From positions 36,642,001 to 36,706,000 of the forward strand of contig OZ024747.1 of the NCBI GenBank assembly GCA_964016885.1: a stretch of 64,000 nt of DNA, given 5' to 3'. Below, piece after piece: positions 288 through 62,960 of the stretch. Numbering within the stretch: the first letter of the stretch is position 1; each line of letters opens with the position of its first letter. A program made the translations under genes and the position numbers. The notes under the pieces were generated by a model, which was not told where the DNA came from, made no database searches, and saw only the letters and a program-made list of their open reading frames with translations. This stretch comes from Eledone cirrhosa. Lineage: Eukaryota.

Positions 288-929
288 CTCTCTCTCTATA
301 TATATATATAACGAAGGAAATGTGGTAAGGAACCAGGTGGACCATAACGCACCGAAGTACTCAATACTTAGGGTAGTAGAGTTGGTAATAGGAACAAGTA
401 AGACCCCGACGGCTGAGCTCAAGCCGTTTCGACGGCTAATTCTGGACTGAATGAAAATTTATTCTGGTATTTAAATAGCCGAGCTTATCAAGATGTAATT
501 CCATATATGGTCAAAGAGATAATCACCAGGATTGGTCACATCACAAGTTAGTAGTAAATCTGTGACGGCAAATTGGTGGGGGAAGGGGTAGCTAAACCTG
601 CCGGTAGGAGGAAAGGGGAGAGGGGTGGAGTAGACCCATTCACGCGTTGGTAGTGCCGGTTACAGCTGGGCGTGAGGTCAAAGAGGATACTGGGGAGGGG
701 GAGGGGGAGGAAGTCGAAACGGTAAGTAGAACAATGAAGGGTAAAATTATAAAAAGTACTGAGAGAGAAAAAAATAAGCAAAGTCTGGTTACTAAGACAT
801 AAGTCTCTCGCTATTGCTAGGAAATACATAAATAAATAAATAAACAAATAAGTGAATAAAAGAATAGATAAATAAATTTTAAAAAAATATAATGAAGAAT
901 AAAAAAAATAAATAATAATAATAAAAATA

Positions 930-1290
930 CGGACACCTCCAACAAAGCTTATATAGGATTAACCGCATGTGACTTCAAGACCCGGCTATACCAACACAGA
1001 CATACCTTCCGGACCCGGCCCGGCGTCACACCACTACACTTTCGGGCCACATATGGGACCTCAAGGACAACAACATCAACTATGATCTCACTTGGAAATT
1101 ACTGTCCAGAGCCAACTCTTACACGGGAGGACGCCGTCCGTGCAATTTATGCTCGGAGGAAACTTTACAAATGTTGTTTTCGACGGACCAACTCCTAAAC
1201 AAGAAAGATGAACTGGTTACTGCATGTAAACACCGATTACGTAGGACTTACCTCGCCCTCAAACCCATAATGACCCGGGGGGATAGACTA
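930..1290 (+). pseudogene. PLE GIY-YIG endonuclease C-terminal fragment (one frameshift)
   Basis: Manual translation: KAYIGLTACDFKTRLYQHRHTF / TTTLSGHIWDLKDNNINYDLTWKLLSRANSYTGGRRPCNLCSEE..LLNKKDELVTACKHR; parallels the ORF at 53177-53680. Confidence 0.85.
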
Positions 1291-2473
1291 GTGCTATAAC
1301 ACCCCACTTGCCTATTTTGTAGTGGGTAAACCCTGCTTGCCAATGGAGACGTAATATCTTCTTTTACATTCTTTTATCGCTTCCTCTATATTTCCTTCTT
1401 CCCCCCATCCCTCCCTAGTCCTTCTACCCCAGCTCATTTTCTTTGTCGTCGTTTATTTCTCGCCCACCCGAGGTAGCACCTCGGTCCCTTGTAGCTTCAG
1501 CACCCCCACCCCCTCCCCTATTCTATTATAAATTTGGCTGACTCCGCATTTTATAGCAGAGGTGTTAGACTTCGGATACTTGCCCCCTTCTCCGACCGCT
1601 GTCCCTTTTTTCCGTGCCTTCTATATTTCATAGTGGCATCTTTGCTTTAATTTCTCGTTTATCCAGTATTTCTTTCTTCTTTTTCCCTTGTTTGGGGGGA
1701 TGGGGTGGGGGGGGGTGGGGGTTCTGTATTAATTTTCCGTTCATTACTTTTACTTCGTACGATCTTTCATGTAGCTTGTATAAGACTTTTTGTTTCGTGG
1801 CGGCACCCTTTGAGTTAGCACTAGTGTTTTTTTCTGCGGGACCCTGAAATATATTCTCGTACTAGTTTACTTTCTTGCACTGAGTGGTTGCTGGCCCTGT
1901 GATTGGGGTAGAAACCTTTATTATTTCGTGGTAATATCTTTAGAATTCCCCCCCCCCCCTTGTTGACCCGTCACCGTACGATACACGCACTTATACCTCG
2001 TATAAGGGTCCCTTTATTTCCGTCCCACCTAGTTTATTTTTATTATTATTATTTATTTTTTTTATTCTTCATTATATTTTTTTCAAATTTATTTATCTAT
2101 TCTTTTATTCACTTATTTGTTTATTTATTTATTTATGTATTTCTTTAGCCTAGCAATAGCGAGAGACTTAAGTCTTAGTAACCAGACTTTTCTTTTTTTT
2201 TCTCTCTCAGTACTTTTTATAGTTTTACCCTTCATTGTTCTACTTACCGTTTCGACTTCCTCCCCCTCCCCCAACCCAGTATCCTCTTTGACCTCACGCC
2301 CAGCTGTAGCCGGCACTACCAACGCATGAATGGGTCTACTTCACCCCCTCTCCCTTTTTCTCCTACTGGCAGGTTTAGCTACCCCTTCCCCCACCAATAT
2401 GCCATCACAGATTTACTACTAACTTGTGATGTGACCAATCCTGGTGATTATCTCTTTGACCATATATGGAATT

Positions 2474-2567
2474 ACCCCTTGATAAGCTCGGCTATTTAAA
2501 TACCAAAATAAATTTTTATTCAGTCCAGAATTAGCCGTCGAAACGGCTTGAGCTCAGCCGTCGGGGT
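2474..2567 (+). ncRNA. Hammerhead ribozyme with U3/A8 core (TTGATAA)
   Basis: acccc-TTGATAA-gctcggcta...tagccgtc-GAAA-cggct-tgagctc-agccg-TC-ggggt; mirror copy at about 403-496 (-) has the same core. Confidence 0.7.
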
Positions 2568-2891
2568 CTTACTTGTTCCTATATATATATATATATATAT
2601 ATATATATATATATATATATATATATATATATATATATATATATATATACATATATGTATGTACGTATACATATATATATATACATATATGTATGTACGT
2701 ATACATATTTATATTTAAGTAACAGCCGTACTAAGAGTGAGAAATGTAATTTTATTTCATTTTTTCTATTTATCGTTTTCGGTGCGCCCGGCCGACTGAC
2801 TAACTCGATATGTAAATTAGGCTGCTCAGCCGTTAATATGCATAAGAAATGTATATACTTTCAGACGTTCAATCATCTGGCAGGAAGGTAT

Positions 2892-60911: not shown

Positions 60912-61059
60912 TGAAAAAATATTCACAGAGTATGTATGAATCCTAAATATTATAGTACCGTGATTTGAACTCAGATAACTCCAACTACCAACGAGCTTTT
61001 CAACCAGGCCACCGAATCCATTTTATTTATATATATTTATATATATGTTTATATATGTA

Positions 61060-61445
61060 GAAGGTGAGTAATATTGTAGAACAATAAAACTGTGCATATA
61101 TCAGATAAGTAGCACTCAACAGTTGGTAGAACTGGAGTATATATAAAAAAGAAGAAATTAAAAGATGGTTAAATGAGTTCCATATATTTTATTATGCGTA
61201 TTTCGAATACAAAATCATCCTGGGAAAAAAATTGTGTTCTCATCAGATAAAATAAGGTAACATGATATGAGGCTTAATAGCACTTGTTTACAGGACTTCG
61301 CGCTTTCCTGTAAACAAGTGCTATTATGCCTCATATCATGTTACCTTATTTTATCTGACAAGAACACAATTTTTGTCCCATGATGATTTTGTATTTGAAA
61401 TATATGGAACTCTTTTAACCATCTTTTAATTTCGTCATTATTATA
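61060..61445. mobile_element. Foldback pLTR-like element; HHR at 61187-61252 (-)
   Basis: Arms about 61150-61294 and 61306-61440; ttttat-CTGATGA-gaacacaa..ttgtattc-GAAA-tacgca-TA-ataaaa. Confidence 0.8.
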
Positions 61446-61455
61446 TATATATATA

Positions 61456-62960
61456 GAAGTGGTTACACAACAGTTAGTTAACCATACTGAGAACAATTGT
61501 TTCACCTTAGCGGATCCTCAGCACGTAATGGACATGGTTATACGGAACAGGAAGTACAACCGTATGAACGCGCATGCGCAGAAACGATTACTTCACACAG
61601 GCAATACTAAATTGCGTGCGAGATGTGTAAGGGAGATAACTGCGAAAGTCCGAAAGTTTCTAGTTGATAAGAAAATTAGGATGGTGTTGTAATTCAACCC
61701 GGAGCTTTGTAGTTATGTAAGAGGTGTTTCCAGACGTGTGGACAACGTGTGAAGAAATCATTTCCCGTGTTTAGGCAATCTCTATTGCTTAATCTCTTTA
61801 GAATATTTATTCGTTCATCAATACATAGTACACACGATGGATTGCCTCTTGCGTATTGCTTGGACTTAGTGATGGCTTTCCATTGAATGGAGTAGTCTAT
61901 ACTTGAGTCCTTGAGGGACCATACGGGGCTCACGAGTTTCGTGGATTAACGTCTGTCCGTGTACCTGAAGGTCGACTGTTGGTTCAGGAAGCGTTCTTTA
62001 AATCGGGCCTCCGCCATACCCACATAGGATTTGACCTCCTGTGATTGATTTGGTCAGTTGGAAGTGACCACAGCTTCATAAATTACATCGGGTGTTTTGC
62101 ATTGCTGTTGAAGGAGACAAGCTTCGGGCTACGGCTAGAGGAGCCTGGTGGGGTGTTGCTCTTAGGGCTGTGGGTGATGTGGGCCTTCATGTTCTTAGCG
62201 CAGGAGTATCCTAGTTTTACTTTGTGTCGGTTAAAGATGGAGCGATATTTATGACCTATGGGAAAGTGTCTATCTAAGAGAGCTAGAAATGTTTTGCCTA
62301 CATTGGTTTTAACGTTGAGTGAGAAGGGAGGAGATAACCAGACAGTTTGTCTATTGTTACGCTTTCTTTTCTTATTGCTGGTGTTGTTAGTGGGAGAGTA
62401 AGTGATAGGGTGCGAGACGCCGCTGTTAGCTAACGCCGTGTTATAGTAGGGTGCTACTCTGTCAAAGATAGCCTTATTAGAGGAGAGGTTTGATATTCTA
62501 ATACTGATATTATATACGAAGTTTCTAAAAACAGTGGGAGGGTGGCATGATTCGTGTGAATGTAATTGAGTTTTTCGTTTAGCTTATGGAAGGAAATCAA
62601 CAATGTCAAACTGTGTGAACTTCGCTTTTTTGGATTTGAAGGAGTTAAACCACTTAATGATGGAGTCGTTCTTCTCCCACTGGGGAAGGTTGGACTTGGT
62701 CCTAATGGTCTTCACTATGTTTCTAAGTATGGCCTTACTGACTAGTCCCATATCTGTGCGTGCCGGGTTTAGAGGTCTACATGTGGGGTTAAAAGCAAAG
62801 TCTTCCTTGTGATCTTTCAGGGTGAGGAACACCTCCCGATTAACTAGAGATTGAAGCTTCTTATCTACCTAAGGGCGGCGGAAAGTTCTTTGGCTTCTGT
62901 ATTAATATCGCGGTAACCCATAGGGTTACCTTTCTTATATTTGGAAGTAATAGCAGCGCG
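61456..62960 (-). mobile_element. Decayed Naiad-like PLE with internal deletion; HHR at 61482-61531
   Basis: FLTLKDHKEDFAFNPTCR..QFDIVDF; SYVGMAEARFKER; CVLCIDE..CLN..CPH; CTGAGGA-tcc.gctaa.ggt-GAAA-caattg-TT. Confidence 0.88.

Follow-up and report, generated by a model that had tools for sequence, protein, structure and literature searches.

The window analysed here is a stretch of 64,000 nt from the 3.0-Gb genome of Eledone cirrhosa (OZ024747.1:36,642,001–36,706,000), in which a first-pass annotation had listed twelve foldback elements, i.e., insertions in (TA)n that carry an inverted and a direct copy of one 3′ segment. We consider it likely that these insertions of Penelope-like elements (PLEs) of the Hydra clade and of their probable non-coding passengers arose when the enzyme of the element cut both DNA strands at TA and began copying twice on one RNA, once in front of each of two small hairpins, likely stuttering as it started. 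In the following, S and L denote the short and the long 3′ end of each family, and L followed by a number (e.g., L302) denotes a sampled locus outside the window or in a metagenome.

The foldback layout is genuine and genome-wide. Self-BLAST of the window located inverted arms at all twelve places (those at 47741 and 56048 were read directly), one arm being longer by a tail of 53–170 nt (about 55–175 nt in the first-pass annotation), and all hammerhead folds and hairpins detected in the listed elements point outward, in keeping with the proposed 3′-ends-out orientation. The claim that (TA)n bounds both outer ends held for 11 of the 12, the element at 24175 having a left (TA)n only and a broken right end at 26089. 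When 60 evenly spaced, unselected 10-kb stretches of the genome were scanned for close inverted repeats, 45 of 76 non-redundant repeats had (TA)n no more than 4 nt from one end or both, compared with 2.4% of random positions, and 31 of these repeats had a second (TA)n within 250 nt as well, confirming an enrichment of (TA)n at inverted-repeat ends. Eight repeats of this sample looked symmetric and TA-bounded, and comprised two of terminal-inverted-repeat (TIR) type and six asymmetric or compound PLE insertions. L269 (6834–6953) and L274 (6279–7163) are true TIR elements with TA arrays on their flanks. In raw short reads from three additional DNA runs, opposite-strand joints were seen in the 4978 family (families are named after the position of their element in the window), together with TA-rich loose ends at both its S and L positions; when DNA runs were compared with the 38258 monomer, the family and its S-to-tail joints were seen, and no foldback joint.

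In each of ten families (16–36 loci mapped per family), the outer 3′ ends cluster at two positions, S and L, which abut a simple repeat, and the inner junctions and arm lengths differ from copy to copy; the 311 family, for example, yielded 33 L and 10 S among 43 ends. Both ends are combined in a strict manner, since 89 of 91 foldbacks paired L with S and only two paired L with L (P = 1e-13 vs. independent choice), with five further pairs set aside (four with an internal TA tract and one with an odd end). Most of these loci had been ascertained through their L end, and the S site of the 39139 family was therefore read as well, in the first 100 of its 942 exact matches. At this site 61 arms stop and 39 continue, and the 22 outward pairs consisted of 17 L+S pairs, four pairs of S with an arm crossing the hairpin, and one tandem plus L with S as its outer end, while S+S pairs were absent (0 of these 22). 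Unselected loci of the 311 family had S and L ends in nearly equal numbers (50 vs. 45). Moreover, when the arms of one insertion were compared, the partner was closer than the average of the other copies in 77 of 80 cases, and it equalled or surpassed the closest copy in 35 of 80, which agrees with two primings on a single RNA or source locus, one for each strand of the break. The earlier proposal of priming from both strands of a cut (TA)n tract is thus supported indirectly, i.e., by the two fixed ends, the variable inner junctions, the S+L pairing, the likeness of the arms, and the in vitro behaviour of a Poseidon PLE (PMC11167929). Apart from the foldbacks, L227, L261 and L287 are tail-only insertions that span S to L between two (TA)n tracts, as would result if copying primed at L had halted at the S site.

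Just beyond S and L alike, at a distance of a few bases, the same fold recurs in coding and non-coding families: CUC (once UUC) pairs with GAG (GAA), the 3′ strand has a bulge of two bases, usually UU, and a family-specific stem and loop follow. With anchors placed by sequence only, pairing covers the first two variable positions in 14 of 17 sites and extends to the third in 12 of them, the stem alternatives across families being compensatory (C-G, U-A, A-U, G-C and G-U); at the three non-pairing sites either a different anchor had been chosen or the copy was mutated. The hairpin opens 10 of 28 unselected tails (12 of 28 with a relaxed bulge) vs. 0.3–0.45 in controls, and in seven of 11 window hairpins the bulged form is the lowest-energy structure (z below –1.2). 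It also occurs beyond this genome. Although a metagenome scan with a single protein gave no matches, an alignment query gave 80 loci, 51 of which were tabulated; in Hydra-type loci with adequate flank, the hairpin was found upstream of the open reading frame (ORF) in six of 16 and after the hammerhead in six of 15 (0.2–0.5 in controls). Of six published Hydra consensuses, three show it by eye, namely Hydra-2_Amil, Hydra-1_Ajap (two copies) and Hydra-2_Ajap. Two further recurrent tail types lack the UU hairpin (L261, L286 and L287; L245 and L289).

Outside these ends, the first simple repeat matches the last bases of the element itself. The S site of the 39139 family reads TCTCT followed by ATATA, and at 41 of 61 S ends a CT run extends beyond the 5-nt template (7–83 nt) before (TA)n begins, compared with none of the 39 arms in which the same TCTCT is internal (P = 3e-13); an initial smaller count had given 13 of 19 ends vs. 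0 of 36 internal sites. Because all 28 L ends of this family start with TA, the CT run does not represent one half of a divided target. Likewise, the L site of the 7835 family reads ACACA followed by TA, and 22 of 30 L ends carry a CA run beyond this template (up to 79 nt). In sibling subfamilies that differ at one base, a TCTCT template goes with CT runs at three of four ends and TCTTT (the 24175 type) with none, and the remaining approximately 17 end classes have TA seeds and almost exclusively TA arrays. (A cross-family table of seeds against arrays was swamped by simple-repeat matches, so that only family-specific rows were used.) Long (TA)n zones were flanked by such an end in at least 89 of 243 cases vs. 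45 of 729 random sites, the library of ends having been drawn partly from TA-adjacent sequence. These patterns suggest that the arrays are likely products of reverse transcriptase (RT) slippage at initiation, which would thereby make microsatellites, and part of the flanking (TA)n was probably made too, by extension from the CT or CA arrays. The first-pass annotation had supposed that the elements may split and multiply (TA)n arrays, and the data favour a stronger form of the multiplication, with arrays likely synthesised at the start sites.

The coding families were identified through a single ORF in which RT precedes a C-terminal GIY-YIG endonuclease, as seen in stop-to-stop frames of 808 aa (L302) and 797 aa (L305) and in a broken frame of 801 aa (L303). 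Their motifs are of the RWK type with DKT in place of DKG (VRWKA/ADKTS, VRWRT/ADKTN and LRWRT/SDKTG), the linkers are of the form CxCX5C (CNCHLPDRC, CNCRSNRTC and CNCPDRSSC), and the endonuclease shows CxLC..E..LLNxK..CRH, in which CxxC and CxH flank E and N, without CCHH. Published diagnostics of the Hydra clade are RWK, DKT, CxCX5C, and CxxC with CxH and no CCHH, whereas Naiad elements have their endonuclease first (PMC8557442). By these motifs the clade is Hydra, which replaces the earlier label of Naiad-type ORFs. A Naiad PLE (N-terminal GIY-YIG, CxC domain, DKA) was considered and rejected on account of the C-terminal endonuclease and DKT; in addition, no canonical hammerheads would be expected in Naiad, yet hammerhead folds were found here. 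Pfam returned no match to the Hydra ORF pieces of the window.

Judged by their sequence, six of the twelve represent fragments of Hydra elements that encode protein, and the elements at 47741 and 56048 are stubs of the 311 family or of a relative. Those at 6390, 24175, 38258 and 48009 read as true non-coding hammerhead monomers of 510–680 bp and are in this respect retrozyme-like, with L-to-L spacings of 654–683, 527–533, 530–549 and 511–512 bp, respectively; ORF matches near them belong to separate insertions. Since each carries a hammerhead and both hairpins, these monomers are likely passengers of the Hydra enzyme, and it is the hairpin shared by coding and non-coding families that links retrozyme-like repeats to this enzyme; a 2020 review states that no conserved motif was known to indicate the retrozyme mobiliser (PMC7761336). 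The community of non-autonomous ribozyme RNAs that had been postulated therefore exists, but accounts for only four of the twelve elements. Nor are there over a dozen unrelated families: there are about ten, the elements at 311 and 47741 being one family (97% over 88 nt) and that at 56048 a relative (79%). Similarly, ORF pieces lie in two rather than three elements (311 and 52097), as the piece at 62083–62583 belongs to a separate neighbour of 61047–61441, and the remainder is not simply non-coding, as those at 39139 and 7835 come from the 3′ part of coding elements.

Hammerhead folds near the ends, as previously claimed, were found in nine of the ten families, many with an open 10.1–11.1 pair, although relaxed descriptors were required (strict ones returned four to six folds only). 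Rfam was weak in this respect: its scan of the window gave no hammerhead at gathering score, its single weak match (HH9, 29.8 bits vs. a gathering score of 52) lying at 5687–5762 on the minus strand in an unlisted element. The descriptor matched 32 of 39 segments of the 311 family, 27 of 34 of the 39139 family and 11 of 16 of the 7835 family, compared with 5/1500 and 5/800 in shuffled controls; a U3-A8 core was present in 30 of 39 segments of the 311 family and a U4C core in 27 of 34 of the 39139 family. In L-end segments of the non-coding families, many of which have arms too short to include it, a type I hammerhead was found in 20 of 45 (6390), 17 of 26 (24175), four of 23 (38258) and seven of 40 (48009). 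S is preceded by the hammerhead at a distance of 20–300 nt. In the 311 family, the L arms show no cluster of 5′ ends at the cleavage site (three of 50 within 5 nt, most lying at the stem region). With cleavage sites upstream of S and 5′ ends unclustered there, cut linear RNA is an unlikely template. Elsewhere, a metagenome contig (L361) holds a U3-A8 hammerhead core in a Hydra-type element of another organism, and L272 (C3:55000001–55010000) contains, at 3850–9378, a 5.5-kb foldback array of approximately 18 units of 310 bp that are 99–100% identical, with TA at both ends, a hammerhead per unit and a tail of approximately 26 nt, resembling one rolling-copy round of a circle.

Taken as a mechanism, the account that we consider likely would run as follows. 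The RT-endonuclease, probably as a dimer, would bind both hairpins as RNA and cut both DNA strands at TA, whereupon priming would occur just before each hairpin, at S on one strand and at L on the other, on the same RNA. Stutter on the first template bases would leave a new simple repeat at each junction, and the two cDNAs would grow toward each other, stop early and be joined into a foldback, the tail representing the S-to-L distance. As each hairpin lies beyond its start and is not copied, only a tandem or circular RNA could sustain L-ended copies over generations, and this need would give a role to the hammerhead and to partially tandem pseudo-long terminal repeats (pLTRs). L-ended full-length copies do exist (L301–L306); they would need a template with a hairpin beyond, either a longer tandem or a circle, and circular RNA templates would fit them. 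As to the stutter, we see an even chance that PLE RT performs a telomerase-like addition of repeats at breaks, in which a hairpin-held seed of 4–5 nt would be re-copied at both starts, making this a main source of the arrays and the target preference partly its product.

The same elements and the same two starts might, however, act on arrays that were already present, with the enzyme splitting existing (TA)n and the CT or CA seed expanding later by replication slippage beside the TA tract. We regard this as rather unlikely, even though (TA)n is the published preference of nearly all Hydra families (PMC8557442), TA comes before the paralogous sequence for 93 of the 156 flanks that have paralogues, and one empty paralogue has (TA)8 where the filled site has (TA)7 plus (TA)12. 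Slippage sits poorly with seeds of 2.5 units that reach 41 units, with a broad spread of lengths, in a family 96–98% alike, with the same seed followed by ATATA never gaining a unit inside 39 arms, and with L ends of the same insertions that have acquired no CT; re-copies near the terminus that exceed dinucleotide length were also found. The remaining 63 of the 156, with non-TA paralogues, were tried as one-sided empty-site cases and rejected, as the far flank is usually unrelated and 5′-truncated neighbours also abut TA. It would be improbable, too, that the hairpins act in DNA, with GIY-YIG resolving tandem or circular cDNA by staggered cuts beside them and the ends being ligated into (TA)n. 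Craig et al. did ascribe the tail to endonuclease resolution (PMC8557442), and in D. virilis recognition by the endonuclease required the tail (as cited in PMC11167929), but the signal is kept as pairing that includes G-U rather than as sequence, which fits single-stranded RNA, the genomic ends of Poseidon coincide with RT starts in vitro (PMC11167929), and arrays copied from terminal bases fit initiation rather than ligation.

Fold-back or miniature inverted-repeat transposable element (MITE)-like DNA transposons with long TIRs inserting at TA are a very improbable source. They would match the inverted, TA-bounded arms, the common inner junction of the 4978 family, and the two true TIR-type elements met in TA in the unselected sample, but not the variable arm lengths and inner junctions, the asymmetric S and L ends and the want of a uniform unit, the more so as many copies are one-armed or head-to-tail tandems and long arms reach RT-GIY-YIG ORFs. 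An assembly or library artefact through chimeric hairpin reads, for which the error-prone nature of palindromes and (TA)n might speak, is close to inconceivable given the opposite-strand joints in short reads mentioned above, arms that are 82–100% alike, as the earlier appeal to arm divergence had it, and family-specific, asymmetric ends at hundreds of loci.

A number of observations nevertheless weigh against two starts at hairpins with stutter. The likeness of partner arms could come from gene conversion instead, and microhomology of at least 2 nt is not clearly enriched at the inner junctions (30 of 69 cases vs. 49 of 116 in the null set), 23 of 69 having extra bases. The hairpin is absent from 16 of 28 unselected tails (other families or decay), four of 11 window hairpins fold without the bulge or weakly on their own, and no L hairpin was seen for the 4978 or 61060 families. 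In the 52097 family none of 17 segments matched the hammerhead descriptor, a variant being visible only by eye. Terminal non-repeat bases were re-copied at only two of 525 ends, plus three found by eye. Finally, the two-sided empty sites are few and isolated, with TA seeds that are short in some and (TA)8–11 already present in others; searches with flank pairs and collinear split matches gave few usable cases.

Within the window, the 311 foldback (311–2579) has its L arm at 311–929 on the minus strand with a 77-nt tail, and a plus-strand S arm that ends at (TA)n (2580–2649). Its family is coding and of the Hydra clade, with a 3.63-kb monomer elsewhere in the genome, and the foldback itself holds the GIY-YIG C-terminal piece of a Hydra-type ORF in two frames (896–1299, plus), a type I hammerhead fold with the U3-A8 core variant (2474–2567, plus) and the UU-bulged hairpin directly past the S end (360–381, minus). 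It is preceded by a short CT run and (TA)7 (288–310, plus), which lie at the L end of a neighbouring family (3–296) whose template ends in TCTCT. A minimal foldback of the same family lies at 47743–47874, consisting of an S arm (47743–47799, minus) and a tail-only L arm (plus), and the related short foldback occupies 56048–56266. The 52097 foldback (52097–55791; 168-nt tail) is a young coding Hydra element with copies 99–100% alike, and its family has a 3.53-kb monomer with the 808-aa frame (tandem copies elsewhere); the minus-strand L arm includes RT (53927–55120) and GIY-YIG (53177–53926), the S hairpin is at 52193–52259 and the S arm at 55162–55791. The 39139 foldback (39139–42206) represents the long 3′ untranslated region of a coding Hydra element, non-coding within the window but with a 4.6-kb monomer and the 797-aa frame in L305; a hammerhead with U4C core (39353–39391) and the S hairpin (39268–39299) are on the minus strand, and family S ends carry (CT)n. 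The 7835 foldback (7836–8374; 53-nt tail) comes from an old coding Hydra element and represents its 3′ end; the family carries (CA)n at its L ends and at L484 runs straight into a decayed Hydra ORF.

Among the non-coding monomers, the 6390 foldback (6389–7219; tandem monomer of ~680 bp) has its S arm at 6391–6599 on the minus strand and its L arm on the plus strand, with the L hairpin at 6606–6625 and the S hairpin at 7117–7150. The 24175 element (24176–26089) joins an inverted L arm to a tandem of a ~530-bp monomer and contains hammerheads at 24348–24418 (minus), 25069–25139 and 25601–25671 (both plus) and S hairpins at 24259–24280, 25207–25228 and 25739–25760. The 38258 foldback (38258–39101; monomer of ~546 bp) has its S hairpin at 38320–38351 (minus), L hairpin at 38690–38708 (plus) and hammerhead at 38878–38936 (plus), and the 48009 foldback (48007–48772; monomer of ~512 bp) has its S hairpin at 48266–48289, L hairpin at 48350–48371 and a canonical hammerhead at 48521–48582 (plus). 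The 4978 short foldback (4978–5202; 61-nt tail) has a hammerhead at 5060–5112 (minus), and a single inner junction is common to most sampled copies of its family; in L181–L200 this junction falls at a 9-bp inverted repeat around the first stem of the hammerhead, S ends spread over 15 nt, and other copies run upstream into different sequence. The 61060 foldback (61047–61441; tail of ~88 nt) has its S hairpin at 61115–61137 and hammerhead at 61193–61246 (minus) and ends at (TA)n (61442–61455), and a one-armed Hydra-type fragment (61456–62976, minus), which includes the ORF piece at 62083–62583, is a separate insertion on this shared tract.

Further members of the system were seen at 33890–34963, 36842–37176, 37895–38136, 42221–42654 and 3–296; they are related to the 6390, 61060 and 24175 elements and carry hammerheads and hairpins. 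A related tandem or foldback family at 5262–5909 and 48826–49649 contains the sole Rfam hammerhead match, and a hammerhead at 49025 lies on the strand opposite the GIY-YIG frame at 49089–49649. Two insertions of another tailed hammerhead family fill 2650–4176; their tails open with a different motif, and this tail type recurs in the unselected loci L248 and L275. A separate PLE of another clade, with C-terminal endonuclease, which we take to be Neptune-like, sits between TA tracts at 8407–11670 (plus; RT 8724–10628, GIY-YIG 10728–11096, hammerhead core at 11457). The window also contains a broken long interspersed nuclear element (LINE) with endonuclease and RT pieces (14060–18139, plus) and a PLE RT/GIY-YIG fragment (32980–33918, minus).

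The account proposes answers to what sets the tail and inverted ends of Penelope elements, to which enzyme mobilises animal retrozymes, and to why hammerheads and partial tandems persist, the proposed reason being that copying leaves the start signal behind and thus depends on a tandem or a circle as template. Arrays that match their template suggest that the closest relative of telomerase among retrotransposons adds repeats; they also point to one origin of microsatellites in this genome, at least one third of whose long (TA)n zones lie against such ends. If true, the guild of coding elements and passengers would be a main factory of (TA)n, (CT)n and (CA)n here, and what has been published as a preference of Hydra elements for microsatellite targets would partly result from insertion itself.

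The foldback architecture itself is mostly of a published kind, because inverted 5′-truncated copies, the tail, (TA)n, hammerheads, extension from both strands and the dependence of retrozymes on PLEs have all been described. What is new here is that the array outside an end repeats the terminal bases of the adjoining element; the paired hairpins and the strict pairing of ends were not found in the literature searched. Full-text searches gave no report of the hairpins, the S+L rule or repeat addition by PLEs, most subscription articles, older Penelope papers and preprint supplements lying outside their reach, and nothing on the subject was found in the accessible part of PMC13282606. Compared with the Hydra clade of Craig et al. 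2021 (PMC8557442), our elements share the RT-GIY-YIG motif set, (TA)n, hammerheads, partial tandems, inverted 5′-truncated copies (Penelope-13_HM) and the one-sided tail, but their tails are 53–170 nt rather than 30–40 nt and their monomers 3.5–4.6 kb rather than less than 3 kb, and paired hairpins, a strict S+L rule and template-matched arrays were not found in the accessible text of that account. U3-A8 cores, opposite-strand hammerhead pairs 100–700 bp apart and the idea of a circular template had already been published in 2014 (PMC4209133), and a non-autonomous Chlamys partner has been reported, with microsatellites read as targets (PMC9977147).

In vitro, the Poseidon PLE extends both strands, uses two internal starts and has a binding region downstream of the start (PMC11167929). 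Poseidon PAc of Anolis (Frangieh et al. 2024, PMC11167929) resembles the present elements in its AT-rich cut and extension of both strands, in starts that define the tail and in its predicted dimer, but it belongs to another clade and starts in an AC-rich stem-loop inside the ORF, and the accessible text names no binding motif and reports no repeat addition. The eel LINE UnaL2 and its short interspersed nuclear elements (Nomura et al. 2006, PMC1636434) likewise share a bulged stem-loop between autonomous and passenger RNAs, with template slippage at initiation that was likened to telomerase; that stem-loop lies upstream of a terminal repeat which belongs to the RNA and is copied, whereas here two hairpins lie downstream of internal starts and the repeat would grow from a 4–5-nt seed. 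Animal non-LTR retrozymes (Cervera and de la Peña 2020, PMC7229834; PMC7761336) are non-coding tandem repeats of 150–1000 nt with a type I hammerhead per unit, as are our passengers in kind, and PLEs have been proposed as their mobiliser (PMC7229834; PMC7761336; Li et al. bioRxiv 10.64898/2026.07.22.740005). Unlike published retrozymes, the retrozyme-like repeats described here form S+L foldbacks in (TA)n and share their hairpins with coding Hydra elements.

In the twin priming of L1, both target strands prime on one RNA, leading to an inversion. There, it is a different internal segment that becomes inverted, whereas in the foldbacks described here both primings would occur near the same 3′ end, so that the segment is duplicated.

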